Positions 8,259 through 59,373 are shown, numbered from the stretch's first letter. The stretch: 64,000 bases of DNA from Acidobacteriota bacterium (GCA_965225995.1 CBDDCF010000028.1:144983-208982); one strand, 5' to 3'. Notes: generated from the sequence alone by a model not told the origin. Made by a program: numbers and translations.

Positions 8259-8274
8259 GTTTTGCAGGTGGGGG

Positions 8275-8506
8275 AAATGCAAGCGCAGAGACGCGGAGGC
8301 GCAGAGATTTTCGCAGAGAGGGAATTGGGGAGGAAAATTCAGGCGTGTACGGGAGTGGCGATCCGCAAACCCCATCCCGTCCGGAACCTCAACAGATTTG
8401 CTCTCCGCCTACGCGTCTCTGCGATTGTATTTCGTCTGCTGGCCACGCCACGAAGCCAATCGGTTGCGGCCCCGGCGCTATGTCTCTGCGCTCGCGTTTC
8501 AAGGAC
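8275..8506. repeat. MITE/REP-like intergenic repeat, copy 2. It has a left TIR at 8275-8290 and two right-TIR-like ends at 8415-8433 and 8488-8506
   Basis: Left TIR aaatgcaagcgcagag and right-TIR-like ends gtctctgcgattgtatttc / gtctctgcgctcgcgtttc. It lies between convergent genes (sixA + and 8499..9539 -). Confidence 0.4.
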
Positions 8507-18636: not shown

Positions 18637-18811
18637 TGGGCCGACACTCCTCACCTAATCGCGGCAACATCCTTCTACCAACACAACATGTCCAATTCAA
18701 GTACCCGTTTGGCATTTGTCAGGGGCCACCCAAAAGCGGCCAGTGAGGGCCACTTCAAAACCGGCCATTCTCAGGAGCCATTGAGAGCTGCATCCCTCGT
18801 AGGATGCGCCG

Positions 18812-20308
18812 ATGGTCAATGTACTGAAAATGGAGAAGAAACAAACGGTTGTGGCGCTATTGAAGCTGGGCTGGTCGTATCGGCGGATCGAGCGAGAAAC
18901 AGGAGTTCGTCGAGAGACTGTAGCCCGACATGATCCGTCCCGAGATTCAAAACCGGCCAAAGTGGCCCCCGGCTCGGGTGAGCAGAAGCGGCCAAAGCGG
19001 CCCCCGGGTCGGCGCAGCTCGTGTGAGCCTTTTCGGGAGGAAATCCAGAAGAAGCTTGAGCTGGGGTTGCATGCCAAGCGGATCTGGCAAGACCTGGTTT
19101 TGGAGCATGGCTTCGATGGAGCGTATAACTCCGTCAAACGGTTTTGCAGAAAGCTCAAAGCCGAGAGTCCACGAGTCTTCGCTCGGGTGGAAACTCCACC
19201 CGGTCGGGACATGCAGGTGGACTTTGGCAAAGCAGCTCTGACACAAACCGAATCGGGCCGGTACCGTCGCCCCCACCTGTTCAAGGCAGTGCTGTGTTAT
19301 TCCCGCCACTCGTATGAGGAGGTCGTCTGGCGGCAGGATCTGGAGACCTTCGTCCGTTGTGTCGAGAATGCCTTCCACTGGTTTGGTGGCTCGGTAGACG
19401 TGGTTCGCTTGGATAACCTGAAGGCCGGAGTCACGCGAGCCTGCTTTGTCGATCCCGAGATCAACGCCGTTTTCAGTGCGCTGGGCCGTCACTATAGTTT
19501 TGCCATCATTCCCATCCATCCTGGCTCTCCAAATGAGAATGGAAAAGTCGAAAGGACGATCGGATATACAAAGTCCAGTGCCCTGAAGGGCAGACGGTTC
19601 GAGAGTCTGGCCGAGCAGAATGAGCATCTACGGAACTGGAACGAGCGGGTCGCCCGACAGCGCATCCACGGCACCACCAAACAGCAGGTCTGGCCCCGAT
19701 TCCTGGAGGAACAGAAGGGTCTTCGACCTCTACCCGACTCCCGCTTCAGTTTCTTCCGTACCGGCCGTCGCACGGTCTCCGTGGATGGCCACATCGAAGT
19801 CGATCGAGCCTTCTACTCGGTACCCAATCATCTGCTTGGCTGTGAAGTGGCTGTGCACTGGGATGACCGGATCGTCCGAGTCTTTTTCCGAGAGCAGCAA
19901 GTCGTCCTGCATCCCAAGCGGAAACCCGGCCAGTTCCAGACCGAACCCACACATCTTCCGGAACGCAAACGCTACGCTCATTATCGAACTGAGAGTCAGC
20001 TGCTCGGGCAAGCCCGCAGGATTGGCTCTGATGCTCACCGCTGGGCAGTGCGAGCCCTGGAGGTGCGCGACGTGTTGGCCTACCGGCTCCTGAGAGGCAT
20101 GATCTCTTTGACCCGACGCTACCCGGCCACGGTCGTCAATGAAGCCTGTGCCAAGGCTCTCTCTCACGATGCCTTCCGCTATCGGACCCTGGTGGCTTTA
20201 TGCAAGCGACTAGACGTGCCGCAACGCTCTCTATTCACCTCCGACCACGAGTTGATTCGGCCGCTGTCTGAGTACCAACTCACTCCCCGCTCAGGAGACC
20301 CGGAATGA
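18812..20308 (+). CDS. istA: IS21-family transposase IstA
   Basis: 498 aa with an N-terminal HTH and a DDE integrase core. It is translationally coupled to istB by a 4-bp overlap. Confidence 0.9.
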   Translation: MVNVLKMEKKQTVVALLKLGWSYRRIERETGVRRETVARHDPSRDSKPAKVAPGSGEQKRPKRPPGRRSSCEPFREEIQKKLELGLHAKRIWQDLVLEHGFDGAYNSVKRFCRKLKAESPRVFARVETPPGRDMQVDFGKAALTQTESGRYRRPHLFKAVLCYSRHSYEEVVWRQDLETFVRCVENAFHWFGGSVDVVRLDNLKAGVTRACFVDPEINAVFSALGRHYSFAIIPIHPGSPNENGKVERTIGYTKSSALKGRRFESLAEQNEHLRNWNERVARQRIHGTTKQQVWPRFLEEQKGLRPLPDSRFSFFRTGRRTVSVDGHIEVDRAFYSVPNHLLGCEVAVHWDDRIVRVFFREQQVVLHPKRKPGQFQTEPTHLPERKRYAHYRTESQLLGQARRIGSDAHRWAVRALEVRDVLAYRLLRGMISLTRRYPATVVNEACAKALSHDAFRYRTLVALCKRLDVPQRSLFTSDHELIRPLSEYQLTPRSGDPE

Positions 20309-21078
20309 TCTCATTGGAAATGGAACGGAAACTTCGCCACCTCAGGCTCTCGGGCCTGGCCCAGGTCTTTGACGTACGGCTGCAACAAGCCATCCAGGGC
20401 CGTCTCTCTCATCAGGAGTTCTTTGAGCTGCTCATCGACGACGAACTCACCCGCCGGCGCGACCGTTTGCTGGAGCGATGTCTCCGCCAGGCCCAGTTCC
20501 CGGAACGCAAACTCTTGGAGGACTTCAGGTTCTCTTTCAACACCTCGATCAATCGGCAGCAGATCTTTGATCTGGCCACTTGCCGATTCATCGAACAGTG
20601 TCGCGGCTGGTTGGTCATCGGTCAGGCGGGAGTCGGCAAAACACATCTGATCATCACGGTGGCAATCAAGGCTGTGGAAGCGGGTCACCGGGTACAGTAC
20701 AAGTCGGCTTTCGATCTGCTCGAGGACATCGCTGAAGCCACTGCCACCGGGATGCGCCGACCCTACATTGCAGAGATGACCCGGATCCCGCTGCTGATCA
20801 TCGAGGATCTGGGACTTCGGAAAGTGCCCGACTCGGCGGCTGAAGATCTGCTGGAGATCCTGCATCGCCGCTACCAGAAGACCTCGACCATTATCAGTTC
20901 GAACCGACCACTCGAGGACTGGGGAGCGATGCTGGGAGGAGACACGGCGGCCACCTCTGCGCTGCTGGATCGTTTTCTACACGTTTCGGAGGTGACCTTC
21001 ATTCGAGGCAAGAGCTATCGCCTCTACGAACGTCAGCAACGGGAGAAGTCGACCAAGAAGCGAGGAGAAAAGAAATGA
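20305..21078 (+). CDS. istB: IS21-family helper ATPase IstB
   Basis: Walker A motif GQAGVGKTHL; AAA+ IstB family. Confidence 0.9.
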   Translation: MISLEMERKLRHLRLSGLAQVFDVRLQQAIQGRLSHQEFFELLIDDELTRRRDRLLERCLRQAQFPERKLLEDFRFSFNTSINRQQIFDLATCRFIEQCRGWLVIGQAGVGKTHLIITVAIKAVEAGHRVQYKSAFDLLEDIAEATATGMRRPYIAEMTRIPLLIIEDLGLRKVPDSAAEDLLEILHRRYQKTSTIISSNRPLEDWGAMLGGDTAATSALLDRFLHVSEVTFIRGKSYRLYERQQREKSTKKRGEKK

Positions 21079-21554
21079 TCCGGAACCGGAAAGCCGTGGA
21101 AACTGCCGGGCTGTCTACAGCAACATTCTGGACTTTCTTGTGCGAGTTCCCGACAACCTCACAATATCGCGTTACTCGATGCGCCAGTCTACAATTAGGT
21201 TGAACTTCTCATCGTGTTCGTCATGATCAGGAGCATGACCGCCACTTCCCGACGACAACGTTGCTACGACCACCGTCTCAAAGAACTCGTCCGAATAACT
21301 GGAGATCTCTCCCCGGCCCTTGAATTAGTTTTTGCGGACCACGCCCGTGCTGGAGCGCATTTTGGAACACATGAGTTTGTCTGGTTTTTCGTGGTATGCG
21401 AACCTCCGGCTTTGTATGTGACTGCTACGGAATTCTCACTGATTCAGGCATGCCACGCGTGGTGTTCAAAACTCAACCGAATCGCAACTGATTGAATTAA
21501 CTCTCCCACGCGCCCAACAACTTGAACATCCCGGTAGAATTGTCAAGCGTTTTT

Positions 21555-22745
21555 TCATGAGCGGATCTCGTAGTCGCGGTCCTCGGTGAGCATTTTCCAT
21601 AACACTCGAACCAGATGACGGGCCAGGGATCGGATAGCTTGGTTGTATCTTTTGCCTTCGGCTCTCTTCTTGGAGTAGTAGGTCTGTGACTGGGGAACCT
21701 CGCGCAGGTGCCGGGCCACAGCCGCCATCATGGCCTGGCGAGTTCGCTGGTTCACATGACGGGTGCGTCGAGCTCCCTCCGTCTGGGAGGAGGAGTTGTC
21801 CAAAGTGGCCATCCCCAGGTACATGGCCAGGCTCGCCTCGCCGGCGAAGCGCTCCAGTGTGCCGATCTCGCCTGCCAACTCTGCGCTGGAAATGATTCCG
21901 AAGCCAGGGATACTTCTGATCCTCTGAGCCATTGCGGAGCGCTGAGTCAGGTCCTCAATGGCATTATTCAACTGGGCGATCTGCTCGAGCAATTCCAGCA
22001 TGCGTCGGGCATCGTGGAGGATCATCTCCCCCACCCATTCGACTTCTGCGGAAAAGTGAGCCTCTTTCTGCCAGCTTTGGATGATGTCAGCATAAAAGGA
22101 ACCGATCCGTTTGATCTGCAATACACTGTGGCGGCGTAGCCGGCTGAGTTGTCGCAGGTCCTTTCGGGCCGTTAGGAAATTTAAAAACCAGCGGTTGTCG
22201 ACCGACCCGGTCAAGGCGCTCAACTCAGGACAGATCGCTTGCAGGTCGGCCAAGAGGCGATTTCCCAGACTTACCTTCTCATCCACCAGCTGCCTGCGCC
22301 TGCGCGTCAATCGTTTCAGTTGTTGGTTTTCTGCCGGAACCGGCTTGACCTCCTGGATCACGTTCTTGGCCCGCTTCAAAGTGTCGCCTAGCTGAAACAA
22401 TTCCAGCATTTTATCGGTGTCAATCTGATCGGTCTTGGCCGGAGCTGGAAAGATCTCTTTGAAGCGAGCCAGTTTCAGGTTGTTGACATTCAACAACTTG
22501 TAGCCGCGTTGCTGAATCTGCTGATCCAAGGGCCGGGCCCAGCCGTTGTAGCCTTCCATGGCCACTTCAACGGGCCGCTCCAAACGCTGGCGGTGGAGCT
22601 CCACGCGGCCAAAGAAATACTCGAAACCTTTCTGGTTGTGGGCAATACTGAACCCTTCCAGAACCTGGCCTTCCGACAAGCCAACTCCCACCCGGTGGCT
22701 CTTGCTGCCCACATCAATCGCCACTCGAATCGTTGGCTTTGTCAT
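21555..22745 (-). CDS. IS110-family transposase/recombinase (DEDD RuvC-like N-terminal domain plus a Transposase_20 C-terminal domain)
   Basis: IRVAIDVGSKSHRV..., AMEGYNGWARPL, and a C-terminal IPGFGIISSAELAGEIG...LGMATLDNSSSQ region. Confidence 0.9.
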   Translation of the reverse strand: MTKPTIRVAIDVGSKSHRVGVGLSEGQVLEGFSIAHNQKGFEYFFGRVELHRQRLERPVEVAMEGYNGWARPLDQQIQQRGYKLLNVNNLKLARFKEIFPAPAKTDQIDTDKMLELFQLGDTLKRAKNVIQEVKPVPAENQQLKRLTRRRRQLVDEKVSLGNRLLADLQAICPELSALTGSVDNRWFLNFLTARKDLRQLSRLRRHSVLQIKRIGSFYADIIQSWQKEAHFSAEVEWVGEMILHDARRMLELLEQIAQLNNAIEDLTQRSAMAQRIRSIPGFGIISSAELAGEIGTLERFAGEASLAMYLGMATLDNSSSQTEGARRTRHVNQRTRQAMMAAVARHLREVPQSQTYYSKKRAEGKRYNQAIRSLARHLVRVLWKMLTEDRDYEIRS

Positions 22746-23003
22746 TTGCCTCCCTTCCTATTTGCTCTTGAAAAATTCGGGCTCATCCAAAACAACACGT
22801 CTACCATTGAAGCCACTTCGGCACCATCCCGGAAGCAATCTTTGGATGAGGAAAAAGGAGGGAACGAGGCGGCAGTTCAAGTTGAGTCACTCCTCACGGA
22901 CTGACAGAGCAAGCCACACCTCATTCCCCGACTCCAGCTTAGTTGTTTTCCAAAGCGGAGCCAATCTTCATGTGGCCTGACACCCAATCCAACCATCCAA
23001 ACT
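22746..23003 (-). ncRNA. Candidate bridge-RNA-encoding non-coding end of the IS110-family element (upstream of the recombinase)
   Basis: 258-bp non-coding region with a perfect 10-bp long-range stem (ctcatccaaa 22777-22786 / tttggatgag 22836-22845) and further local hairpins. IS110/IS621-type elements encode their guide RNA in such a non-coding end. The 440-bp downstream end (21109-21554) is an alternative location. Confidence 0.25.
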
Positions 23004-23160
23004 GTGGAAACCGCCGCGCTGTGCAAAGCTAAGAGAAACCGACATGGCAGCAACTGACCCCCTCGCTCAGGAGTTTTCCCCCTCTTCACACAGCGCTTGG
23101 AAAACGGCTCGCGGGGCTCGCTCGTTTCCCACCGTTCCCACAGTTTCTGCTGCTGGATAT
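23004..23160 (+). repeat. Remnant of the IS21 copy-1 right arm (homologous to 29102-29245 of copy 2) lacking the terminal IR
   Basis: Shared blocks cgctRtg... and cacagcgcttggaaaacggctcgcggNgctcgctcgtttcccac...agtt. Copy 2's terminal IR (ggccggttttga...gtggcccccgaca) is absent here. Confidence 0.45.
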
Positions 23161-23399
23161 ATACTCTCTGAAAATTCCTTTTCTCTCGGAATGCTATGGT
23201 AGACAGTACCCTTGGCGCGCCTCGGCCTTTCTACGGGTCAGTGTTCCGCCAGGCCACGACTGCTTCTTCGTCGAACCAGAAGGTCAGCCGACCCCGGCCG
23301 ATCAGCTTTATTGTAGGCTGGCCAATTGCTGAACTCCATACCGGAAGGCGTGTTCATTCGGCGTGATTCCTCATCGCTGGCACCCTGACGGGTCAGAGA

Positions 23400-23560
23400 C
23401 AAGCCCACACGCCCGAAGCGATTTATTCAGCGCCGCGCTTTTCCTTTTTCAATTTTCGTTTTTCCTTTGGATTGAGCTTCGACTTTTTTTGTTGTTCCCT
23501 TTTTCCTTTGTCTTTTTTCCCCTGATCGCCCATTTCTATTTCTCCTTGCTTGAAAATGAC
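23400..23560. repeat. Polypyrimidine (T/C-rich) low-complexity tract in an otherwise GC-rich context
   Basis: ttttcctttttcaattttcgtttttcctttgg...ctttttttgttgttccctttttcctttgtcttttttcccc. It produces the Lys-rich tail of the dubious ORF 23427..23822(-). Confidence 0.5.
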
Positions 23561-23830
23561 TTGCGCCGGACCGTGGCGGCGAAGCTTTGTCTCCGATCGT
23601 ACACGTTAGCAGATGGAGTTCCCCCGGTGTTGGAATTTTGGGTTGGCCAAGCGAGTGGTTTCCGATCAGCTCGGAACCGAAGAGATAATTCACAAGTCTT
23701 ACCAAAGAGGGCTCCACTGCGGCGACGGCGGTTTGCATGTCTCTAGAGAGGCTGAAGGTAAGCCAGAAGACCGACGTACCGATATGTGGGCAATTTGGGC
23801 AGTGGTTCTGGGAGGTGCTCACGGGCAGTC

Positions 23831-25008
23831 TAGTGCACTGTCCGATAAGTTCCCGATGTTAATATTGGCCGAGCGATTCGCGGGCATTTTGGGCCTTTGC
23901 CAGGATTGAGTCAGCAGTGGCGCGCCACTTGAAGGGCTTGGCCAAGCGTTGATTGTGAACCCGAATATATCTTTTGATTTCCTGTCTCAACTCTTGGACG
24001 CTGCTGAAAGAGTTTCTGTAGATCGAACGGCGCTCCAGCTGTGAGAACCAGCTTTCGACGGCATTGAGCCAGGAGGCGCTAGTGGGCGTAAAGTGGAGGT
24101 GGTATCGGGGCCGCTGGGCCAGCCAGCTTTGAACCTGCTTGGTCTTATGAGTGCTCGAGTTGTCCAGGATTAAGTGGACATCCAGTTCGGGCTCGACCGC
24201 TTGATCAATCTGGCGGAGAAAAGCCAGGAACTCCTTGGCTCGGTGCCTATTGGTGATGCGGCCCATGACCTCACCTGTCACCACATCGAATGCGGCATAC
24301 AGACTGGCTGTACCGTGGCGCTTGTAATCGTGTGTCCGGCGTTGGATCTGTCCAGGTCTGAGCTGGAGCATCGGCTGAGTTCTATCCAGAGCCTGGATCT
24401 CAGTTTTCTCGTCCACGGATAGAACCAGCGCATTGTCGGGCGGATCCATATACAGCCCCACCACATCGATTACCTTTTCGGCGAAGTGAGGATCGTTGCT
24501 GATTTTAAAGTTACGGACTCGATGCAGCTTCAGGTCGGCTGCCTTCCAGATCTGGGCGACTTGATGCTTGCTCACTCCGGAGTGTTCGGCCATCAGTCGC
24601 ACACTCCAGTAGGTCGATTCCCGTGGGATGCGTTCAACGGTGGCTTTGAGAATAGCTCGCACATTGGCATGCGATAGCTTCCGCGGACGGCCCGATCGAG
24701 GTCGATCCTCCAGTCCTGACACTCCCTGCTCAAGATAGCGCCTGCGCCACATTTGCACACTCAGTAGCCGCTTGGAGAGCCTTTCCGCAACTTCAGTCGC
24801 CGTCAGCCCCTGGCCGCAAGCCAGAATTATTTGAGCCCGTTCGGCCAAGACTCGATCGGTCTTGGAAGCCCGCAACCAGGACTCCAGTATTCTTCGATCT
24901 TGTTCGGGTAGCTTTAGTCGAATGTGGGGTCTTGCCATGCCCAACAATAGCAAACTACCCCGACAATTAACATCGGAAACTTTCCGGACAGTACACTAGC
25001 TCTTCAAG
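23831..25008 (-). mobile_element. IS630-family element, copy A (about 1178 bp), with TA at both ends and 30+ bp TIRs
   Basis: TIRs TAgtgcactgtccgataagttcccgatgttaat ... attaacatcggaaactttccggacagtacacTA. Near-identical to copies B and C. Confidence 0.85.
23859..24953 (-). CDS. IS630-family DDE transposase
   Basis: 364 aa with N-terminal HTHs and a DDE triad region (LSVDEKTEIQ, ILDNSSTHK, WLNAVE). Confidence 0.9.
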   Translation of the reverse strand: MLLLGMARPHIRLKLPEQDRRILESWLRASKTDRVLAERAQIILACGQGLTATEVAERLSKRLLSVQMWRRRYLEQGVSGLEDRPRSGRPRKLSHANVRAILKATVERIPRESTYWSVRLMAEHSGVSKHQVAQIWKAADLKLHRVRNFKISNDPHFAEKVIDVVGLYMDPPDNALVLSVDEKTEIQALDRTQPMLQLRPGQIQRRTHDYKRHGTASLYAAFDVVTGEVMGRITNRHRAKEFLAFLRQIDQAVEPELDVHLILDNSSTHKTKQVQSWLAQRPRYHLHFTPTSASWLNAVESWFSQLERRSIYRNSFSSVQELRQEIKRYIRVHNQRLAKPFKWRATADSILAKAQNARESLGQY

Positions 25009-25301
25009 GAGAAGGCATCTCGGACATCTGTCTCACCCAATCCATCCGCTCGCTTCTGAGGCGTGTTCTGACCCGAAATCAAATACTGAATAAGAGAAAG
25101 GGACACGGCCTTGCTTTTCCAAGCTCAACCACTAGCTCAATCGGCGCGCGCCTCTCGAGCCGATCTTGCCGACTTAAGGACAGATCTCCGAGGCGACGGG
25201 CGAACTACTTTCGGGCAAGTTCGAGATGCGAACGGCGAAGTGCGAATGCTCATTGAGATTTAGTGCTTGGAGCTTGGGAATTACCAAGCCGAAGGATTGG
25301 T

Positions 25302-25350
25302 TGCGGGGGGGGGGATTTGAACCCCCGACCTTTGGGTTATGAGCCCACTA
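25302..25350 (-). tRNA. 3' fragment of a tRNA-Met-like gene (CAT anticodon arm, T-arm and acceptor 3' strand). No 5' half is present, so it looks like an att-site remnant
   Basis: The minus strand reads ...tgggCTCATAAcccaaaggtcGGGGGTTCAAATCCCCCccccgca. The 5' acceptor strand and D-arm are absent upstream. A G10 homopolymer lies adjacent on the plus strand (25306-25315). Confidence 0.5.
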
Positions 25351-25435
25351 TCGTGATGGCTTGTCTTTTCTATTCAATGACTTACAGTGACCTTGTTTCC
25401 TGGTTTTTCGTGGTATTCGGGAATTTTTGTGGTAA

Positions 25436-25732
25436 ATCTGTGGTAATTCCCTTCCCCAAGCAGCTTCTAGAAGTTCCGGCCTACCATCCGCTTCCGAGTT
25501 CTCACGCTATCCCTCCATTTCACTTGGCGATCGACTCAGGAAGCACCGCATTGAAAATGGTTATAAGCAGGTTGATCTGGCCAAGTTGCTGGGAGTTCAT
25601 GAGATGACCATAGTGAATTGGGAGACTGGAAAGACGAAGCCTTCAGGTAGGCTGGTCGGGCGGGTCACCAGATTCTTGAAGGGTCAGATCAAGACGCGAC
25701 GGGTGTATGGCAGAGAATCGCGGGCGTCTTGA
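25436..25732 (+). pseudogene. XRE-family (Cro/C1-type) HTH gene remnant without an in-frame start codon
   Basis: Frame-2 translation gives ...RLRKHRIENGYKQVDLAKLLGVHEMTIVNWETGKTKPSGRL... (classic HTH_XRE). No ATG/GTG/TTG lies upstream of the HTH in frame. It is followed by a hairpin (caagacgcg...cgcgtcttg) at 25681-25726. Confidence 0.45.
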
Positions 25733-25815
25733 TCTGGGGATTCTCAATTAGATTCTCTGGAGTCGGATTATCGCGGGCACCTAGGTGAAGGCAATGTCAG
25801 TCTGTTCTTCACCAG

Positions 25816-26764
25816 TCACCGAAGGATATTCAGATTGAAAGCGTCAGCGATGATTTCAGGAAATGGCATCTTTCCCAGCCTGATCCAATCGAGCGCAAAG
25901 AATAGGCAGCAGAAAGCCGCACCGAATGCGACCTGGTCAACCCTCTCGACTGCGATCGACCTTGTATGGGACTGGTTGAAGAAAGTGGGCTGGGTCTCTC
26001 CATTTCTGTCAGCACAGGGAAGAACAACGACTCCCTCACCCGCAACTATCAAGTCCGGGAAGAGATGGATCGCAATGTCTGGAAAAGCCAGCTCTCTCAA
26101 GAGATCACTTACTGCGTCCGGTTGAAGCGCGCTACCGTCTTTCGTCTGCTTAACATACCTAGCCAAAATCACTCCATAGACTGGATTCCTAATCTCGTGT
26201 AGAGGAAGCGGAGAATCGGGAGACCGTTGAAGTCCATCACTCACGTAGGGATCGGGGCTGAGTATCTGTCTTGGCTTTCGCTTGCCAACAAGTTCCTTTA
26301 CTTTGGCAACTTGCCTGCACGCCTTTTCCAAGCTTGACTCGCCTGTGCACCCAGCGCCAAGCTGTGCTTGGATTCGATGTAGGCGAAGACTGCTTCAATA
26401 GGTGTGTTCTCTTTTCGTGAGTAGTCATCATTCGGTGTAAGGCGAAGGGTTGGAAACCGGTCCTGTGCAAAAATGATGTGTCGTCGCCAGCCTTGTTTCC
26501 ATCGGCATCAACTACGAAGCCCCTACAGATACCATACTTCTGGGGCAAAGCTTCTCGGAGGATATGACAAATGGCAATTTCAAACTCGGGCCCGTAATCG
26601 AATCCGTACTCAGCTTGAATCTGATCCAACTTCACGCAAAGCGTCGAGACAGGGTGGTCACATAGTCGTTGTACAGATGCTTCTTCGCCCTCACTGACCG
26701 TCTCCTGCTCTAAATCGCCGGCTGTCAGGGGCCACCCAAAAGCGGCCAGTGAGGGCCACTTCAA
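25816..26764 (-). pseudogene. Hypothetical gene disrupted by a frameshift (two ORFs overlap at 26237-26331) and truncated at its 5' end by IS21 copy 2
   Basis: ORFs 25816..26331 and 26237..26764 are in different frames. The N-terminus of the latter (MKWPSLAAFGWPLTAGD) is translated from the IS21 left IR. No family was recognised. Confidence 0.35.
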
Positions 26765-26817
26765 AACCGGCCATTTTCAGGAGCCATTGAGAGCTGCATC
26801 CCTCGTAGGATGCGCCG

Positions 26818-28314
26818 ATGGTCAATGTACTGAAAATGGAGAAGAAACAAACGGTTGTGGCGCTATTGAAGCTGGGCTGGTCGTATCGGCGGATCGAGCG
26901 AGAAACAGGAGTTCGTCGAGAGACTGTAGCCCGACATGATCCGTCCCGAGATTCAAAACCGGCCAAAGTGGCCCCCGGCTCGGGTGAGCAAAAGCGGCCA
27001 AAGCGGCCCCCGGGTCGGCGCAGCTCGTGTGAGCCTTTTCGGGAGGAAATCCAGAAGAAGCTTGAGCTGGGGTTGCATGCCAAGCGGATCTGGCAAGACC
27101 TGGTTTTGGAGCATGGCTTCGATGGAGCGTATAACTCCGTCAAACGGTTTTGCAGAAAGCTCAAAGCCGAGAGTCCACGAGTCTTCGCTCGGGTGGAAAC
27201 TCCACCCGGTCGGGACATGCAGGTGGACTTTGGCAAAGCAGCTCTGACACAAACCGAATCGGGCCGGTACCGTCGCCCCCACCTGTTCAAGGCAGTGCTG
27301 TGTTATTCCCGCCACTCGTATGAGGAGGTCGTCTGGCGGCAGGATCTGGAGACCTTCGTCCGTTGTGTCGAGAATGCCTTCCACTGGTTTGGTGGCTCGG
27401 TAGACGTGGTTCGCTTGGATAACCTGAAGGCCGGAGTCACGCGAGCCTGCTTTGTCGATCCCGAGATCAACGCCGTTTTCAGTGCGCTGGGCCGTCACTA
27501 TAGTTTTGCCATCATTCCCATCCATCCTGGCTCTCCAAATGAGAATGGAAAAGTCGAAAGGACGATCGGATATACAAAGTCCAGTGCCCTGAAGGGCAGA
27601 CGGTTCGAGAGTCTGGCCGAGCAGAATGAGCATCTACGGAACTGGAACGAGCGGGTCGCCCGACAGCGCATCCACGGCACCACCAAACAGCAGGTCTGGC
27701 CCCGATTCCTGGAGGAACAGAAGGGTCTTCGACCTCTACCCGACTCCCGCTTCAGTTTCTTCCGTACCGGCCGTCGCACGGTCTCCGTGGATGGCCACAT
27801 CGAAGTCGATCGAGCCTTCTACTCGGTACCCAATCATCTGCTTGGCTGTGAAGTGGCTGTGCACTGGGATGACCGGATCGTCCGAGTCTTTTTCCGAGAG
27901 CAGCAAGTCGTCCTGCATCCCAAGCGGAAACCCGGCCAGTTCCAGACCGAACCCACACATCTTCCGGAACGCAAACGCTACGCTCATTATCGAACTGAGA
28001 GTCAGCTGCTCGGGCAAGCCCGCAGGATTGGCTCTGATGCTCACCGCTGGGCAGTGCGAGCCCTGGAGGTGCGCGACGTGTTGGCCTACCGGCTCCTGAG
28101 AGGCATGATCTCTTTGACCCGACGCTACCCGGCCACGGTCGTCAATGAAGCCTGTGCCAAGGCTCTCTCTCACGATGCCTTCCGCTATCGGACCCTGGTG
28201 GCTTTATGCAAGCGACTAGACGTGCCGCAACGCTCTCTATTCACCTCCGACCACGAGTTGATTCGGCCGCTGTCTGAGTACCAACTCACTCCCAGCTCAG
28301 GAGACCCGGAATGA
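26818..28314 (+). CDS. istA: IS21-family transposase IstA (copy 2)
   Basis: Identical to the copy 1 protein except for R->S near the C-terminus. Confidence 0.9.
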   Translation: MVNVLKMEKKQTVVALLKLGWSYRRIERETGVRRETVARHDPSRDSKPAKVAPGSGEQKRPKRPPGRRSSCEPFREEIQKKLELGLHAKRIWQDLVLEHGFDGAYNSVKRFCRKLKAESPRVFARVETPPGRDMQVDFGKAALTQTESGRYRRPHLFKAVLCYSRHSYEEVVWRQDLETFVRCVENAFHWFGGSVDVVRLDNLKAGVTRACFVDPEINAVFSALGRHYSFAIIPIHPGSPNENGKVERTIGYTKSSALKGRRFESLAEQNEHLRNWNERVARQRIHGTTKQQVWPRFLEEQKGLRPLPDSRFSFFRTGRRTVSVDGHIEVDRAFYSVPNHLLGCEVAVHWDDRIVRVFFREQQVVLHPKRKPGQFQTEPTHLPERKRYAHYRTESQLLGQARRIGSDAHRWAVRALEVRDVLAYRLLRGMISLTRRYPATVVNEACAKALSHDAFRYRTLVALCKRLDVPQRSLFTSDHELIRPLSEYQLTPSSGDPE

Positions 28315-29084
28315 TCTCATTGGAACTGGAACGGAAACTTCGCCACCTCAGGCTCTCGGGCCTGGCCCAGGTCTTTGACGTACGGCTGCAACAAGCCATC
28401 CAGGGCCGTCTCTCTCATCAGGAGTTCTTTGAGCTGCTCATCGACGACGAACTCACCCGCCAGCGCGACCGTTTGCTGGAGCGATGTCTCCGCCAGGCCC
28501 AGTTCCCGGAACGCAAACTCTTGGAGGACTTCAGGTTCTCTTTCAACACCTCGATCAATCGGCAGCAGATCTTTGATCTGGCCACTTGCCGATTCATCGA
28601 ACAGTGTCGCGGCTGGTTGGTCATCGGTCAGGCGGGAGTCGGCAAAACACATCTGATCATCACGGTGGCAATCAAGGCTGTGGAAGCGGGTCACCGGGTA
28701 CAGTACAAGTCGGCTTTCGATCTGCTCGAGGACATCGCTGAAGCCACTGCCACCGGGATGTGCCGACCCTACATTGCAGAGATGACCCGGATCCCGCTGC
28801 TGATCATCGAGGATCTGGGACTTCGGAGAGTGCCCGACTCGGCGGCTGAAGATCTGCTGGAGATCCTGCATCGCCGCTACCAGAAGACCTCGACCATTAT
28901 CAGTTCGAACCGACCACTCGAGGACTGGGGAGCGATGCTGGGAGGAGACACGGCGGCCACCTCTGCGCTGCTGGATCGTTTTCTACACGTTTCGGAGGTG
29001 ACCTTCATTCGAGGCAAGAGCTATCGCCTCTACGAACGTCAGCAACGGGAGAAGTCGACCAAGAAGCGAGGAGAAAAGAAATGA
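28311..29084 (+). CDS. istB: IS21-family helper ATPase IstB (copy 2)
   Basis: Walker A motif GQAGVGKTHL. Four substitutions relative to copy 1. Confidence 0.9.
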   Translation: MISLELERKLRHLRLSGLAQVFDVRLQQAIQGRLSHQEFFELLIDDELTRQRDRLLERCLRQAQFPERKLLEDFRFSFNTSINRQQIFDLATCRFIEQCRGWLVIGQAGVGKTHLIITVAIKAVEAGHRVQYKSAFDLLEDIAEATATGMCRPYIAEMTRIPLLIIEDLGLRRVPDSAAEDLLEILHRRYQKTSTIISSNRPLEDWGAMLGGDTAATSALLDRFLHVSEVTFIRGKSYRLYERQQREKSTKKRGEKK

Positions 29085-29513
29085 TCCGGAACCGGAAAGC
29101 CGTGGAAACTGCCGCGCTATGGAAACCGTGGAGAACGGTCACATCGAGAAGCCGGCCCATGCATCGGTTCTTCCACCGTTCCCACAGCGCTTGGAAAACG
29201 GCTCGCGGTGCTCGCTCGTTTCCCACAGTTACGCACCGCTTCTGCTACTGGACATACCAACAAGAAAGAAGATTCCGGATCGACCAGCTTCGCGGTCCAA
29301 GAACCGGCCGAACCGGTCAACGAACGCCCTGCTCACGGGCTCACAGCAAACCCGCCCCGACCAGCAGGCCGTACAGCCTCCTCACGGAGGCCTTCACAAG
29401 GATTGAAATGTGTTCAAGGCGAGGATATAACTACTAGATCACTGGCCGGTTTTGACCCGGCCCTGAGTGGCCGCTTTTGATGTGGCCCCCGACACCGGAT
29501 CCAAAAATATCCT

Positions 29514-31393
29514 CCTAGTCCCAAAGCAAGTACATCAGTGTTGATTCCAAGGGCCTGAAAAGGCCCGAAATGCCAGTCCTGACGGGTATTCTAGGGTTGC
29601 AAAAAACTCTGGAAAACACCGAAAAGAAAGGCATTTCAGGTGAACCCAAAAGATATCGAAATCCTGCGCAAACGGCAATCGGAAAGTGAAGATCGATTAG
29701 ATCGGAGTTGGATGCCGGAGAAGGGCCAAAGGGTGCTGCGCGGGGGCAACATCCAGTATGAGATTTCGGATCGAGTCCGAGCCGTGGATTGCGGGGGGCT
29801 GGGTGTGATCCAGCTGCTGGTCAAGCAGCTGGAACTGGCCGAAACCATCGACCAACGGGTGAAGGTGCTGGAGCGGCATCTGCCGTACCGGGAATCGGAT
29901 CATGTGCTCAATCTGATTTACAACGTCATGACGGGCGGTAGCTGCCTGCAGGACGTGGAGGCTCGACGCCGGGACCCGGTGTATCTGGACACGCTGGGGG
30001 CCCGCAAGGTGCCGGCGCCGTCCACGGAGGGGGACTTCCTGCGGCGCTTCGACAGGAATTCGATCGGGGATCTGATGGAAGCGGTCAATGAGGCGCGACG
30101 GAAAGTGTGGTCGAACCAAGACAAGGAGTTTCACCGTCAGGCCACGATTGATGTGGACGGGACGATCGCCCCGACGGATGGACAGTGTAAGAGCGGAATC
30201 GGAATGAGCTACACCGGCCACTGGAGCTATCATCCGCTGGTAGTGTCTGTGGCTGAGACCAACGAGGTGCTCTATTTGGTGAATCGGGCGGGCAACCGAC
30301 CCTCCCATGAAGGCGCGGCCGAGGTGCTGGATCGGGCCATCGAGTTGGTGCGCGGTGGTGGTTTCCAGAAGGTGTTGCTGCGGGGCGACACGGATTTTAC
30401 GCAGACGCGTCATCTGGACCGCTGGGATCAGGAGGGCGTAGAGTTTCTCTTTGGGGCGGATTCCAGCCAGGGGTTGGTTGGTCGGGCCGAAGGACTGGAG
30501 CCCAGCGCCTGGAGTCGGCTGGATCGGGCAAAGAAGAAGAAACTGCGAAGACGGCGGCGCAAGAATATCCGCCAGGCCCTGGTCAAAAAGAATGGCTATC
30601 GCAATCTGCAACTGGAGCGGGAAGATGTGGCCGAGCTGGCCTAGCGACCGGCGGCCTGCAAGCAGAACTATCGGCTGGTGGTGGTGCGAAAGCAAATTAC
30701 GGTCACCCAAGGACAGGGACGGCTCTTTGACGAGACCCGCTATCTGTTCTATCTGACCAACCTGCGAAAGGAGTCGGCCAGGGAAGTGGTTTTCTCAGCC
30801 AATCGTCGCTGCCATCAGGAGAATGTGGTGGAGCAGCTCAAGAACGGGGTTCAGGCGATGCGGATGCCCTCGGACAGCCTCGAGTCCAACTGGGCGTACC
30901 TGGTGATTGCTGCCCAGGCCTGGAACTTGAAAGCCTGGCTGGGCCTGGTGCAATCCGACAAGACGATGGGGCAGCGGATTCTGAAGATGGAGTATCGCCG
31001 GTTCCTGCGCTGGCTGGTTCAGATTCCTTGCCAGATCCTGCAGCGGGGGCGACGTCTTCTTTACCGGCTGCTGAACGTCAACGACTGGACCGAAACGCTG
31101 CTGAGCGGAGTGCCGTCGCCCAAGCGGGTCCGCTACGGCTAACCCGCCACAGGACAAAGCAAAGAAAATCCACGGAGGTTCAAGGGCTGAGGTCGAAGGC
31201 TGTTCGAAAACGGCCGAAAATTCCGATTCTTGCCTCTCGATCCCACTCCGAAGGCCCTCCAGCAGGAGATCACCGTCGGATGCGCCCGACTCGCGCAGCC
31301 TTCAGTCCGAAAGTCGACCACAGAGGGCTAAATGACCCTCAAAAAGAGTCAATCGAGCGGCCCAGAAGCTGATACGCTTATTTTGGGCCTAGT
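29514..31393 (+). mobile_element. IS1380-family element (approximate ends) immediately adjacent to IS21 copy 2
   Basis: Candidate imperfect IRs cctagtcccaaagcaagtacatcag (29514-29538) and ctgatacgcttattttgggcctagt (31369-31393). They enclose the IS1380-type transposase. Confidence 0.5.
29640..31142 (+). pseudogene. IS1380-family DDE transposase with an in-frame TAG at 30642-30644
   Basis: ORFs 29640..30644 and 30678..31142 are in the same frame. Translation continues ...ELA*RPAACKQNYRLVVVRKQITV...TRYLFYLTNL...NWAYLVIAAQAWNLKAW, typical of the IS1380/IS4 C-terminus. Confidence 0.75.
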
Positions 31394-39101: not shown

Positions 39102-39236
39102 ATGCAAGCGCAGAGAGGCGAAGGGTCGGAAGCGCTGCGCTGACAAAACTATGCAACACATCCCTTTTCGGATCCCCACAAACAAAACCGCTCCGCGAAG
39201 ATCTCTGCGCCTCCCCGTCTCTGCGCTTGCATTCTC
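39102..39236. repeat. MITE/REP-like intergenic repeat, copy 3 (135 bp), between convergent genes
   Basis: TIRs gcatgcaagcgcagag (39102-39117) and gtctctgcgcttgcattctc (39217-39236). Core gaggcgaagggtcggaagcgctgcgctgacaaaac. Confidence 0.5.
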
Positions 39237-49132: not shown

Positions 49133-52100
49133 CTACTGCGTGAGGTTGGATGCTTGAGGCATGGCTACGGCGCTGTGGCTCAGCGATTGTATTACTCCGG
49201 CTTTGAACTCCAACAGCTCCTCCGGATTCGGCCGAATCCTACTCCCTGGCAGCACCAGACCAATTAAGTTGAGCGGATCGGCTGCAGAGAAGCGAATGAC
49301 CTGACCCGAATCGGGTTGTCGCCGTACGGCGCGCAGGGCCGCCACTGCTTCGGGGAGGGCGAACTGTTCCCCGGCCACACCCGCCACAAAGCGGCCGCCA
49401 CGGATCTTGCCGATCGCCTCCAGCCGACGCAGCACACGCAGGAGATCACCCCAACGTACGGAAAGCGTCTCGCGCTGAATGATGTCGCGGAACACGACAC
49501 CCCACCGGCGCAGGAGAATGCGGGCAAACTCTTCCAAATCAGGGCGCTGACTGAAAGGATCACCGGCTTGTTGGGGTGGCGTCCGCAGCAACGTCCAACG
49601 GCCGACCGACAGGTTTTGGCGACGTGCTCACTGTTCCTTCGGGAACCTCCGGCCCCGCAGCCGCTGCTTGGCGTCAAAGAGAGCTCGCAGACAGGCAAAA
49701 CCGTCAGCGGTGACCAGGCCTGCCGAGGCCAGCTCCCAGAGCGCCGTCTCGACCTCGATCGGGAGCCGTCCGGATAGTCGAACCAGATCCTGGAAAAACG
49801 ATGCTCCCCACTGCTTGAGTAGCTCTCTCATCTGTTCGGCATTGGGGGTGAGCTGGACTCCCTCCGCGTGCTCACTATTCCCATGCGACAGGCGCATCAA
49901 AAGGGCCATGTTCTGGCGGCGGAAAAACGAGACCGGCGCCAGTCGAGTGGGGCGGATCCATCGCTTGCTGAGGTCTGCCTCGACCTTAGACACCTGCGCC
50001 GGTGGTGTGAGCCGAGCCCAGGCGAACTGACCGGAGAGACAAAGTTGGTCCAGGAACTCGCTCTGATAGTCGCTGACTCGAGCCGGGAGGATGAATTTCT
50101 CCCAGGCGGCAGCCGGGATCTCCAAACCCTGGAGCTGATCGAGTGCCCAGGAGATCCCTTTGATTCCCGAGGGGGCACGATCCGAACCTACAGCTTGCCA
50201 TTCGAACAGAAAACGCACGAAATCAGCCGTCGAGACAGGTTGAATCTCTTTCCTCAGGCGACCCAGGGTTCGGCGGTGGATTCGGGCCAGCAGGCGCCGA
50301 TCACACCATTCGAGCTCGGAACTGCCCGGAGTGAACTGCCCGCGCAGGATCGCCCCCTGCGCTTCTAGAGCGTGCAGCCCTTGCTCGATGTCGAGGGGAG
50401 TAAGCCCGAGCAACCCGCACAGGGACGGGGCCGATGTGGGGCCGCACGAGGAAAGTCGGGCCTGGAGCAATTCGGCAATCGCGGCATTGCGATCCAGCTC
50501 GGAATCTCTCACCCATTGCGCTTTATCCAATTCAGCACCGGCGGCAGGGAGATTTGCCGGTTCCATCTCAGGATAGATTCTCTGCACCAGACGGAAGCGT
50601 TCCGCCGCACTCCAAAAAATAGACTCCGAGGCAGATCGGTGCTTGAAGCCGACGGCCCGACCCTGAGCAACCAGGGCTTTCAATTCCTCGTCATGAAATA
50701 CGACTTCCGAACCCGGCATGACGAGTAGGGTGAGCAGAGCATCATGGACTTCTTCCCGGTCGCGCATCGTGGGAGACGATTCTTCGGTAACCTGCCGGAT
50801 CGCTTCCGAATCCAGTTGGGCGAGGTCCTCTTCGCCCTCCGGCAAGCTACGCCGGCTTTGCACGGCCCGCGTCCGGCGCTCCTCCAACGGAGCATCATCC
50901 AGATAGGCATAGGGATTAGCGTTCAGGATCTCCTGGCTGAAGGGAGAAGGCTCGCGTGTGTCGCTGGCATGGCACTCGATCTCTCCGGGCCTCCAGTGCA
51001 CGAATGGTGGCCTCCAACCCCTCAATGTCCATCGCATCGGTCTGGCATTCCCGGAGCGTTTCCCGGATCAATGGATGGTCGGGAATCTCAATATCTCCAA
51101 CGATATGCTCGAGACAGGCCGCCTGTTCCGGGAAGATCGACGCCAGTAGATCATCCGAGCGAATACGCTGCAGCGGAGAGGGTACCTTGCGTCCCCCCTG
51201 GAAACGCAGGATGGCGAGTGAGCGGTTGGCTACCCAACGCCAGCGGGTTCCAAATAACGGAACCGCCAGCAAAGCTTGGACCAAGAGTTCGCGAGCATTG
51301 TGGGAGCGAATGTACCCGAAGACGGTCGAGAGAGGAAAGCTGTGCTGATCACTGAGAGAGAGTACGATTCCGTTCTCAGTCGCCGCGGCTTGGAGCTCGA
51401 AATTGAAAGAGCGGCAGAAACGCTTGCGCAGCGCATACCCCCAGGCCTTGTTGATACGGCTGCCAAACGGAGCGTGGAGCACCAACTGCATTCCTCCCGC
51501 TTCATCGAAGAAACGCTCCGCCACGACCCGCTTCTTGGTTGGGAGCGCTCCTAGTGCACTGTCCGGAAAGTTCCCGATGTTAATTGTCAGGGTAGTTTGC
51601 TATTGTTGGGCATGGCAAGACCCCACATTCGACTAAAGCTACCCGAACAAGATCGAAGAATACTGGAGTCCTGGTTGCGGGCTTCCAAGACCGATCGAGT
51701 CTTGGCCGAACGGGCTCAAATAATTCTGGCTTGCGGCCAGGGGCTGACGGCGACTGAAGTTGCGGAAAGGCTCTCCAAGCGGCTAATGAGTGTGCAAATG
51801 TGGCGCAGGCGCTATCTTGAGCAGGGAGTGTCAGGACTGGAGGATCGACCTCGATCGGGCCGTCCGCGGAAGCTATCGCATGCCAATGTGCGAGCTATTC
51901 TCAAAGCCACCGTTGAACGCATCCCACGGGAATCGACCTACTGGAGTGTGCGACTGATGGCCGAACACTCCGGAGTGAGCAAACATCAAGTCGCCCAGAT
52001 CTGGAAGGCAGCCGACCTGAAGCCGCATCGAGTCCGTAACTTTAAAATCAGCAACGATCCTCACTTCGCCGAAAAGGTAATCGATGTGGTGGGTCTGTAT

Positions 52101-58200: not shown

Positions 58201-59373
58201 ATCGGGTTCCTTTCCGCTACCTCAACCGACCAGGGCTCTAATCAACAGTCTGCAGGGCCTTTACGTCCATATCCCCTTTTGCGTCCACAAATGCCCGTAC
58301 TGCGACTTTGCCTCAGGTCCTGCGGAAGGGCCGCGACGAAAGCAGTACCTGGACGCTCTGGTTCACGAGATTGAGACCACTGCCTGGAAGAGGGCCGCTC
58401 CCGAAACGGTGTATTTCGGAGGAGGAACTCCTTCTGAGCTCAACACCCAGGAATGGACGGCGATCTTCCATGCACTGCGATCCAGCTTTGATCTGCGCGA
58501 CCTCGTCGAATTCACCGTGGAATGCAATCCCGGAACCCTCAGTGCAAGCAAACTTGCCGCCCTCCGAAATAGCGGGGTCAACCGTCTTAGCCTCGGTGTG
58601 CAATCCTTCAATAACCGCACCTGGCTGAGCTGGGGCGCATCCATGATTCCGGTTGCGCGCGGGATTCGATCCGGCTGGCACTGGAAAAGGGCTTCTCCAA
58701 TCTCAGCCTGGATTTGATGTACGGTTTGCCCGGACAGACGTTGGCCGAATGGAAGGCCGACCTGCAAGAAGCCATCCAGCTAAACCCTCGCCACCTCTCG
58801 CTCTACGCATTAACCCTGGAACCTGGGACGCCTTTCTTTGATCTAAAAGAGCAAAGCAGACTCGCTTCCATGGATCCGGATCTGGCCGCAGACATGTTCG
58901 AGTACTGTATGGACTATTGCTCGTTAAATGACTACCAAAAATATGAATTATCGAGTTATTGCCGAGAGGACTTCCGCTCACGGCACAATCTGCACTATTG
59001 GACCAACTCCAATTACCTGGGGCTTGGGATGAGTGCCGCGTCGCACGTCAACGGTTACCGCTGGGCCAATGCTAGAGACCAGGATCGATACACACATGGC
59101 TGTCTGTCCGGCCAGCCCAGGCTAGAGTACTCGGAATATCTGAGTCCCCGGAAGCGAGCTTCGGAAGAGATCATCCTACGCTTGCGGCTGGATCAGGGAG
59201 CGGATCTGGTGGCCCTGTCCGATTCCTACCATCTTCCGTTGGCGCGAGAATACCGCGCCCAGATCGAAGAGCTCCAACGCCTGGGTCTGATTGAAGCCGA
59301 GGATCGGCGTCTGGTGATGACGCGACGAGGTCGCTTATTGGCTTCCGAAGTGGCTTGTCATTTCTTGGTTTAG
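58175..59373 (+). pseudogene. hemW: Radical-SAM HemW (HemN-like, heme chaperone) with a -1 frameshift near 58612-58616 (a CC/CCC run)
   Basis: CxxxCxxC motif (FCVHKCPYCDF). ORFs 58175..58717 and 58714..59373 are in different frames. Shifting frame at ..aaccgcacctgg.. gives the expected ...NNRHLAELGRIHDSGCARDSIRLALEKGFSNLSLDLMYGLPGQT. It sits in the conserved lepA-hemW arrangement. Confidence 0.8.

Follow-up and report, generated by a model that had tools for sequence, protein, structure and literature searches.

Integrative elements that use tRNA genes have an attachment site that includes a copy of the tRNA's 3′ part; on integration an intact gene is rebuilt, and the original 3′ part is displaced, together with its native flank, to the other junction. 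Large serine integrases (phiC31, Bxb1 and A118 type) have protein-coding genes as their textbook targets, and their att sites share little identity. In mycobacteriophage immunity the repressor gene carries the att site within its 3′ part, a degradation tag is trimmed off upon integration and tRNA 3′ ends are targeted; this integration-dependent immunity was reportedly set out by Broussard in 2013. tRNA genes are the textbook attachment sites of prophages, genomic islands and ICEs, with attL and attR carrying a duplicated tRNA 3′ segment (Reiter 1989, Williams 2002). The organisation of tRNA attachment sites has been described, with attB cores of 25–76 bp, in an account that also mentions the integration-dependent immunity of mycobacteriophages with attP inside the repressor gene (PMC8092301). 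ICEs, IMEs and prophages are all documented to target tRNA-Met (PMC8627217, PMC3986857).

We analysed a 64-kb stretch of Acidobacteriota DNA (the window) in which half a tRNA gene and a helix-turn-helix frame without a start codon lie among insertion sequences. We conclude, with a probability of about three in four, that the window holds the attR-type junction of a former integrative element at tRNA-fMet, since largely erased by IS elements and now inert. An att duplicate left by a tRNA-targeting element had been proposed from the DNA alone (the sequence-only reading). It is the explanation best supported by the exact match from T28 to the 3′ end, the shared boundary, a second copy in sequenced samples and the junctions at which homologues of the XRE frame are found. 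The features are collected in Table 1. Native DNA is confined to 25000–26722, a relic of about 1.7 kb between an IS630 and an IS21 element. The IS21 element has terminal inverted repeats TGTCAGGGGCC.../...GGCCCCCGACA and is flanked by CCGG(C)/CCGG. Further out are IS110, the other IS21 copy, an IS1380-like element and a second IS21-type element, followed on both sides by ordinary chromosomal genes. The sequence-only reading had placed the locus in a 5.6-kb segment between two direct IS21 copies, with IS110, IS630 and a disrupted gene, and all of these were located.

Table 1. Features at and around the junction (positions in the window)
Feature	Position	Strand	Remarks
Second direct IS21 copy	18717–21112		99.7% identical over the shared 2396 nt to the copy at 26723–29494
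IS110 transposase	21555–22745		
IS630-family element	23830–24999	−	Left bound of relic; one of three ~99% identical copies; DDE_3 transposase; ends CTAG...CTAG
Flank on the 3′ side of the fragment	25000–25297		Presumed native chromosomal sequence 3′ of the tRNA gene; IS630 cuts its left end
Orphan 3′ portion of initiator tRNA-fMet gene	25298–25347	−	T28 to A76 including encoded CCA; att core copy; from direct reading, Rfam and comparison with intact genes
G10 run	25305–25314		Spans T-stem 3′ strand and start of acceptor 3′ strand, each with 5 C on the tRNA strand; the latter has 4 C in intact genes
Element-side arm	25348–25457		Single copy; adjoins fragment; phased repeats
XRE-family (HTH_3) pseudogene	25458–25732	+	First gene inside junction; HTH ~25535–25681; stop 25730–25732
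Disrupted DUF6602 / PD-(D/E)xK-nuclease-like gene	25816–26722	−	Two overlapping frames; 5′ end cut by IS21
IS21-family element (istA, istB)	26723–29494	+	Right bound of relic; inserted into DUF6602 gene

Read directly on the minus strand from 25347 to 25298, the fragment is T28-GGG-CTCATAA-CCCAA-AGGTC-GGGGG-TTCAAAT-CCCCC-CCCCCGCA-A-CCA. These 50 nt comprise most of the anticodon arm (anticodon CAT at 25341–25339), the variable loop, the T arm, the acceptor 3′ strand, the discriminator A and the encoded CCA. The sequence-only reading had a tRNA-Met-like 3′ half at 25302–25350 on the minus strand; the half and its strand are real, the limits shift to those of Table 1 with the end at the encoded CCA, and the identity can be sharpened. 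Besides CAT there are three G–C pairs at the base of the anticodon stem (29–31:39–41) and an acceptor 3′ strand CCCCGCA, the fragment reading GGG-CTCATAA-CCC and ...CCCCGCA-A-CCA, and it is therefore an initiator tRNA-fMet; the C1:A72 mismatch is unreadable without the 5′ strand. The G10 run, earlier described as adjoining the fragment, is inside it. A 114-aa ORF at 25263–25607 is spurious.

The 5′ half is absent, as the sequence-only reading had it. ARAGORN finds no tRNA gene in the whole 64-kb window. Rfam (E-value mode) gives only a partial match to RF00005 at 25310–25357 on the minus strand, with 23.5 bits against a gathering score of 29; the alignment spans model positions 10–63 only, in which the anticodon and T arms are good and the D arm is spurious. 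With the two programs no relaxed or complete tRNA was found at the locus, and the complete cloverleaf of a functional tRNA gene, with both acceptor strands and a D arm, is not formed. When the 28 nt upstream of T28 were compared by hand with the intact-gene consensus, 6 of 28 positions matched, which is the chance level. The similarity ends sharply at position 27, where the intact gene has T and the window G. Judged from this comparison, the 5′ side is a junction at a point and not the product of decay of the 5′ half.

The tRNA-like stretch might in principle be a chance resemblance, or a functional tRNA-like RNA module such as a half-tRNA or regulatory mimic, given that the T and anticodon arms can fold alone and reach the Rfam score quoted above. 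We consider the probability of this to be negligible. A run of 41 consecutive nucleotides is identical to real tRNA-fMet genes, with 0 such matches expected; a 37-nt core of the fragment was located at a single place in the window, where 0 are likewise expected by chance, and never arose in shuffles. Both readings are further opposed by the extra C in the acceptor/T-stem run, by the lack of a promoter-like site near the fragment and by the finding that the fragment with its flanks is conserved as a unit nowhere among the 119 loci described below.

One genome per species was scanned with a 41-nt stretch of the fragment, and at least 119 loci were listed, the window's own genome not being among them. 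Almost all are from Acidobacteriota (many of them Vicinamibacterales), with some from Latescibacterota and a few others. Directly upstream of the matched stretch, 113 of the 119 loci listed have the full tRNA-fMet 5′ half, as CGCGGGGTGGAGCAGTCCGGTAGCTCGTT, then the query, then GCAACCA; in five further loci the sequence ends at the contig or locus end, and these cannot be read as orphans. The identical 41 nt belong to genes that begin CGCGGGG and are called tRNA-Met(cat) by ARAGORN. The fragment thus has full-length counterparts in other genomes, as a derivation from a tRNA gene had presupposed: from T28 to CCA it agrees with the intact tRNA-fMet of at least 119 species listed, except for one extra C. 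The window has C10 where 118 of the 119 intact genes listed have C9 followed by GCAACCA, and one locus (L031) alone has C10.

The sharp boundary at T28 recurs in L055, itself an orphan copy (TT/GGG); the sequence downstream of it shares 90% identity with that beyond the intact gene of L014, a related MAG. It also recurs in viral sequences. Eight IMG/VR contigs carry the tRNA-fMet 3′ half alone, and two of them (L232, L233) have the T28 boundary, reading TGTGGG/CTCAT against AGTGGG/CTCAT in the window. Indirect support comes from two Logan contigs (L001 and L002, runs ERR14231557 and ERR14231558), which encode the adjacent 171-aa ORF exactly and are 100% identical to the window over 25318–26752, with the G10 run outside the matched range. 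The XRE region and the frameshifted DUF6602 gene are therefore not errors peculiar to one assembly. Each contig ends exactly 30 nt (k−1 for a k=31 de Bruijn graph) inside the known repeat IS21 on one side and, with T28 as the first base counted, exactly 30 nt inside the tRNA fragment on the other. The samples must therefore hold a second sequence that shares the half from T28 and differs at position 27, and the break places the repeat boundary at the very base given by sequence comparison. This second copy is most likely the intact tRNA-fMet gene, although it could belong to another organism of a possibly mixed sample. The 64-kb window contains no second copy of the fragment.

On the 3′ side of the fragment, the 298 nt from 25000 to 25297 carry no coding signal, have no homology to the flanks of the 119 tRNA-fMet loci listed and, by hmmsearch, none to serine-recombinase C-termini. 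Direct reading reveals a small hairpin, CTTGG-gaatta-CCAAG, at 25273–25288. The absence of element features, and only that, suggests that this stretch is chromosomal. On the 5′ side, the arm has no further copy in the window and is single copy in the Logan graph too, and is therefore not an IS end. It contains two exact TGTGGTAA repeats (25428 and 25439) that are 11 nt, one helical turn, apart, with a related CGTGGTAT at 25409. These are the only exact copies of TGTGGTAA in the 64 kb (direct-repeat family D3). They may be binding sites of a recombinase or directionality factor; phased repeats of other sequence, YYGCAC in L125 and TTGTAACC in L123, are present at other loci. As operators of the XRE protein they are unlikely, since the repeats vary between loci while the XRE recognition helix is invariant. 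The motif GTCTTTTC...(AAT)GACTTAC follows the tRNA or the fragment in the window, in L125 and in L123, where it is on the opposite side of the tRNA. We treat it as generic or coincidental, because its T-rich string is also present after tRNA 3′ ends in unrelated settings (L235 and several flanks).

The first gene beyond the arm had been described as a helix-turn-helix frame at 25436–25732 without a start codon, and this proved accurate. The frame is open over that interval and its first in-frame ATG, GTG or TTG, at 25586, falls in the middle of the HTH. The domain itself is well supported, with Pfam HTH_3 (PF01381) at E=2.3e-10 and 40.8 bits against a cut-off of 23, HTH_31 at E=2.6e-9 and a PHROGs transcriptional repressor at E=8.7e-10. 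Fifteen homologues were found. The longer ones share a leader ..HAVANYKK.EA.LITFRVSRYPARTLGERIRKKRL.MGLKQ.., and across 12 aligned close homologues the helix region ...HEMTIVNWETGKT.P is invariant. In the window the N-terminal leader is shortened and diverged. Relative to L122 and L127 there is an additional T (+1) at 25499/25500, just after the family start position, and the ancestral frame carries a TAG at 25468–25470. The window has CCT at 25480–25482 where close relatives have CTG, CTC or TTG (relatives overall also ATG). Among distant relatives with a placeable frame anchor, about two-thirds have ATG or TTG 40 codons upstream of EMTIVNWE, giving MVITLRLSRYP.... Lack of a start codon is thus in part shared with the close relatives, which have CTG or CTC at the family start position, and in part genuine decay by the +1 frameshift. 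An intact frame with a start upstream of helix 1, as in a functional gene, is lacking, and by its sequence the XRE frame is a pseudogene. Beyond it, the disrupted gene matches Pfam DUF6602 (E=3.2e-7) and PADLOC PD_DExK (E=5.6e-8). Its ORFs, 25816–26331 and 26237–26764, are in different frames and the IS21 boundary is at 26722/26723. It is possible that this gene was cargo of the lost element.

The positions of XRE homologues elsewhere bear on what the window's copy once was. In L125 and L126, long metagenome contigs with complete IS21 copies 84% identical to that of the window, about 330 nt separate the XRE gene from an antisense orphan tRNA-Gly(GCC) 3′ fragment on its outer side, beyond which there are housekeeping genes; no intact tRNA is found by ARAGORN in either contig. 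In L127 the XRE gene follows an antisense tRNA-Arg-like fragment. At 11 of 80 metagenome loci it adjoins a 5′-truncated comM (Mg-chelatase family) at a fixed junction, ...GTAGTAACCGCACGGGCAACC/ATGCGG.... Recombinases are also found nearby. In L205 and L199 an ORF with Resolvase, Recombinase and Zn-ribbon domains reads straight into the XRE in an attP-like order, and in L159 its neighbour is the remnant of a serine recombinase, which runs into an antisense tRNA-Asn; L194 and L169 have tyrosine-integrase sequences near the XRE instead. Orphan T-arm/acceptor motifs in the 900 nt upstream of XRE homologues number 6 where 1.3 are expected, a 4.7-fold enrichment (P=0.002). About 60 of the 80 more distant relatives have no recognisable target fragment nearby, and some of these are followed by ordinary metabolic genes. 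The family thus typically supplies the first gene inside one end of integrative elements of several target specificities.

These observations allow another history to be weighed, in which a once-intact tRNA-fMet lost its 5′ half through an unrelated deletion or IS rearrangement and the XRE frame is a mere neighbour. The surroundings make this conceivable: the adjacent 17 kb are saturated with IS elements (IS21 twice, IS110, IS630, an IS1380-like and a second IS21-like element) and other genes of the window are split by IS, for example Lhr by IS630. We nevertheless regard it as improbable. The break is not at an IS end, and the adjoining 110 nt are the single-copy arm. It falls at an anticodon-stem position common to independent orphan copies and viral attP sites. 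The XRE family recurs at junctions with three different tRNAs and comM, and integration yields 3′ halves of this sort, with CCA and the downstream flank retained.

The tRNA-fMet 3′ half is also met by recombinases of both classes. At 37 of the 119 loci listed, an ORF with serine-recombinase C-terminal homology runs antisense into the intact tRNA-fMet and ends in ...VAGGGFEPPTFGL and a stop; the tRNA half codes for its ~14 C-terminal residues and for the TGA stop, which is the anticodon loop read in antisense. Ten of these ORFs reach at least 480 aa, and in the one full-length ORF checked with Pfam (L082) Resolvase, Recombinase and Zn_ribbon_recom domains are present. Relatives occur in 43 IMG/VR contigs, 23 of which end likewise in the antisense of a CAT tRNA. 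Among the eight viral contigs with the half alone, a Pfam tyrosine integrase lies beside it in all four that were checked. The initiator tRNA 3′ half is a heavily used att site for serine and tyrosine recombinases alike. Our limited literature search found no description of serine recombinases overlapping tRNA-fMet. Within the ≤7.9 kb examined, no second att copy was found for the serine-recombinase elements at tRNA-fMet, of which contigs CAWEUE010000003.1 and OZ253457.1 are examples. In several viral contigs one half-tRNA has both a serine recombinase and a P4-like integrase at its flanks, which suggests tandem arrays.

The sequence-only reading spoke of an integrase. A site-specific recombinase is a sound reading of the locus, but it need not have been a tyrosine integrase, as large serine recombinases use the site just as often. 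Neither a cognate integrase nor the other att copy is present in the 64-kb window. No window ORF of 150 aa or more has a Phage_integrase or Resolvase/Recombinase domain, and tblastn with 7 tyrosine integrases and 9 serine recombinases gave no match. IS21 cuts the element 1.4 kb from the junction. At the fragment itself there is no antisense ORF ending in ...VAGGGFEPPTFGL and a stop, which is expected if the fragment is the distal junction.

The same searches bear on whether the fragment could instead sit at the centre of an intact attP and be flanked by element DNA on either side, having come here through IS-mediated events or as the joint of tandem elements. The order recombinase, att core, XRE in L205 and L199 would fit, as would the viral contigs that carry the same tRNA half as attP, and a left flank of only 298 nt is little informative. 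An 11-nt perfect inverted repeat, GGGAATTACCA/TGGTAATTCCC, also lies on either side of the fragment, at 25276–25286 and 25441–25451. We rate this arrangement as very improbable. An attP of the serine type requires a recombinase ORF that enters the fragment, and a profile of 37 serine-recombinase C-termini finds nothing in 23000–25360 beyond the tRNA-encoded residues; moreover, the recombinase frame meets a TAG 13 codons before it reaches the fragment. The tblastn result speaks against an attP with either class of recombinase. As for the inverted repeat, it is one of 13 pairs of 9–17 nt listed in the 800 nt around the site, is indistinguishable from chance among them and has its left arm in the local hairpin. 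A 50-aa ORF of the left flank (25111–25263, ...EVRMLIEI and a stop) was tried as a decayed serine-recombinase C-terminus and rejected, the profile again finding tRNA-encoded residues only.

We return to the attR-type junction as the preferred reading. This copy of the half probably arose by integration. A displaced 3′ segment keeps its native downstream flank and has the element on its 5′ side, and the element would therefore have lain above 25347. On the inner side are the XRE frame, with its junction-recurrent homologues, and the PD-(D/E)xK-like gene; on the outer side there are only the 298 nt of non-coding DNA before IS630, which match nothing. Against the reading count the lack of an integrase and of a second att copy in the 64-kb window, the many distant XRE relatives without a target fragment, and that no whole element linking this XRE to tRNA-fMet at its two ends was recovered. 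The history would then be as follows. The host initiator tRNA-fMet gene would have served as attachment site of a site-specific integrative element, and the displaced original 3′ part (positions 28–76) would be 25298–25347, still attached to its native downstream flank. The first 110 nt of the element would be the arm with its two phased TGTGGTAA repeats, followed by an XRE-type regulator reading inward and then by a nuclease-like cargo gene. The regulator would later have decayed by frameshift and loss of its start, while IS21 cut the cargo gene and IS630 the chromosomal flank. IS traffic would have removed or separated the integrase, the intact tRNA and the other junction, which would now be elsewhere in the genome or lost.

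Whether the recombinase was a large serine recombinase or a tyrosine integrase we put at roughly even odds. The adjacency seen in the XRE family and the high frequency of serine recombinases at the site argue for the former, as does a geometry in which the tRNA reads forward, the recombinase in reverse, then, at the far end, the XRE in reverse and the fragment forward. In the sense of the tRNA, the window has the XRE frame in reverse, the fragment forward and then the flank, which fits the circular order recombinase, att, XRE of L205 after integration. For a tyrosine integrase speak the phased TGTGGTAA repeats, which look like arm-type or directionality-factor sites and have analogues of other sequence in L125 and L123.

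A more specific proposal is that the relic is the distal end of a widespread and apparently undescribed class of elements, in which a large serine recombinase targets the initiator or another CAT tRNA, the recombinase gene harbours the att site within its 3′ end, antisense to the tRNA, and the XRE gene lies just across that site. We offer this tentatively and think it rather unlikely. The class in which serine recombinases overlap tRNA-fMet is seen outside the window, and it may be linked to the window's XRE relic. If the proposal is true, integration would part recombinase and XRE to opposite ends of the element and amount to a built-in switch that senses integration state. In one version, the start-less XRE would be the C-terminal exon of the recombinase gene, joined to it in the excised element, as in the single 586-aa ORF that spans recombinase and XRE in L205 and L199. 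We have mostly set this aside and keep it only within the proposal just described, because these two contigs are one lineage and the wider family mostly has ATG or TTG at codon −40, and because the recombinase frame of the tRNA-fMet type stops inside the att site.

On its own the scar is of little weight, and its value is mainly for annotation: it accounts for a half-tRNA, a homopolymer run and a start-less HTH frame, and warns against annotating either the 114-aa ORF or the XRE frame as genes. The locus also marks the original position of the 3′ flank of the host tRNA-fMet, and thus a place where IS traffic has rearranged the chromosome. More broadly, integration is crowded at the 3′ half of the initiator tRNA, a hot spot not only in Acidobacteriota but in further phyla, where phages with tyrosine integrases use it as well. 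Serine recombinases that overlap a tRNA in antisense are unexpectedly frequent there, and could interest those who mine genomes for serine integrases and their att sites.

Compared with described systems, the scar is a new instance of a well-known kind, an ordinary attR-type junction. Its regulator frame resembles other XRE/Cro-C1 HTH_3 proteins in its Pfam score, its phage-repressor-like size and its invariant helix, and differs from them in having no usable start, a +1 frameshift and a shortened, diverged leader. The likeness to mycobacteriophage immunity lies in an HTH gene hard against the att core, in integration altering what is upstream of or within the regulator, and in the tRNA 3′ end as target; in the window, however, att is upstream of the 5′ end of the HTH gene and the gene is dead. 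With serine-recombinase elements the window shares XRE relatives directly downstream of a Resolvase/Recombinase/Zn-ribbon protein, a tRNA-fMet that such a recombinase abuts in 37 of the 119 loci listed, and, in comM, an XRE-family target of the usual protein-coding kind. It differs in that the window has no such recombinase, that att would be a tRNA half of ~50 nt overlapped by the recombinase 3′ end, and that the phased repeats of the arm resemble tyrosine-integrase arm sites more. As for tRNA attachment sites, the window retains only one junction, the integrase, second copy and nearly the whole element being gone, and the target is an initiator tRNA in an uncultured host that, by tRNA sequence and gene content, is probably acidobacterial. 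Its orphan 3′ segment nonetheless has the orientation of the tRNA, keeps the 3′ end and downstream flank, and presents a 50-nt identity block that begins in the anticodon stem and is within the 25–76 bp of known cores.

Among the listed matches to a 41-nt stretch of the window's tRNA-fMet fragment (119 loci, one genome per species), 37 of the 119 species carry an ORF with homology to the C-terminal region of large serine recombinases that enters the intact initiator tRNA gene in antisense. The overlap, on the opposite strand, is 44 nt; the ORF ends ...VAGGGFEPPTFGL and its stop codon sits within the antisense of the anticodon loop. Just beyond the tRNA 3′ end, and within the recombinase coding sequence, lies a strong hairpin with a T-rich stretch behind it (AGGTCGCCGGTTTCCGGCGACCT TCTTCGCATTTT), which could serve as a replacement terminator for the tRNA. 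The overlap is seen again in L159, a further locus with an XRE homologue, where the frame of a serine-recombinase remnant extends in antisense into an intact tRNA-Asn gene (...WLPGQDSNLQPSG, then stop) and stops in the anticodon loop. This tRNA-Asn is a second tRNA target showing recombinase/tRNA overlap.

Coordinates of example loci and of the split helicase gene
Feature	Locus	Coordinates	Source or domains
Recombinase/tRNA-fMet	L012	4980-6600	genome_contigs
Recombinase/tRNA-fMet	L082		genome_contigs
Recombinase/tRNA-fMet	L020		genome_contigs
Recombinase/tRNA-fMet	L104		genome_contigs
5′ half of tRNA-Arg(ACG) gene, XRE homologue, serine-recombinase remnant	L159	4700-6700	
XRE family, region with the core	L130	430-770	
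XRE family, region with the core	L171	920-1260	
Lhr-type helicase part	window	49628-51037	WH3_Lhr/AlkZ-like
Lhr-type helicase part	window	52688-54598	DEAD/Helicase_C/WH_Lhr

In the XRE family, as seen among the 80 metagenome loci with more distant relatives, a 30-nt core is conserved just 5′ of the XRE start, AACCGCACGG.CA.CC.TGCGG.T.CAAACTAC; in 11 of these loci it constitutes the boundary to a comM gene that is truncated. Three such units, each roughly 270 bp, are found on one 50-kb contig (Ga0208039_1000221). A degenerate core is retained even beside tRNA fragments, in L125 and L127 (loci of closer homologues) and in the window at about 25455-25475. The stop codon of the window's XRE pseudogene is bracketed by a perfect 13-nt inverted repeat, CAGATCAAGACGC / GCGTCTTGATCTG (25685-25736), with no T tract after it. 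A 114-aa GTG ORF (25263-25607, plus strand) passes through the antisense of the tRNA fragment (GGGDLNPRPLGYEP...); it is spurious and does not merit annotation as a gene.

Six IS elements lie within the 17 kb of the window around this relic. One IS630 copy (51551-52720) splits the gene of an Lhr-type large helicase (49628-54598). A HemN-like radical-SAM gene (58175-59373) and an IS1380-like transposase (DDE_Tnp_1_4; 29640-31142) each appear as a pair of successive ORFs, through frameshifts or through indels in the assembly. The IS density and these two split genes together suggest a genome under IS expansion and gene decay. In the stretch 21113-23161, IS21 copy 1 has lost its identity to copy 2, which ends after 21112, where a 1.96-kb insert with an IS110 transposase follows; the next 89 nt (23073-23161) match the tail of copy 2 (29167-29256) at no more than 86% identity, and copy 1 lacks its right terminal repeat. 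This makes copy 1 either truncated or chimeric. Other repeats in the window are a tandem array of about 5 copies of a 26-nt unit (CAGGCAAGATGCCTGCGCTACTTGG, 60776-60902) and a dispersed intergenic family of 46-59 nt (AATGCAAGCGCAGAGACGCGGAGGCGCAGAG...) in both orientations (1743-1801, 8274-8332 and 39188-39233).

Relatives of the tRNA-fMet recombinase are also encoded on 43 viral contigs (IMG/VR). In 23 of these the C-terminus is the antisense translation of the 3′ half of a CAT-anticodon tRNA, with an initiator-type acceptor in 13 (VAG.GFEP.TF.L, then stop) and another Met-type tRNA in 10 (VAEEGLEPPT.GL, then stop); one further viral recombinase ends in tRNA-Ser. On several contigs the gene of a P4-like tyrosine integrase begins 100-200 nt past the same half-tRNA, which suggests that these are elements in tandem.
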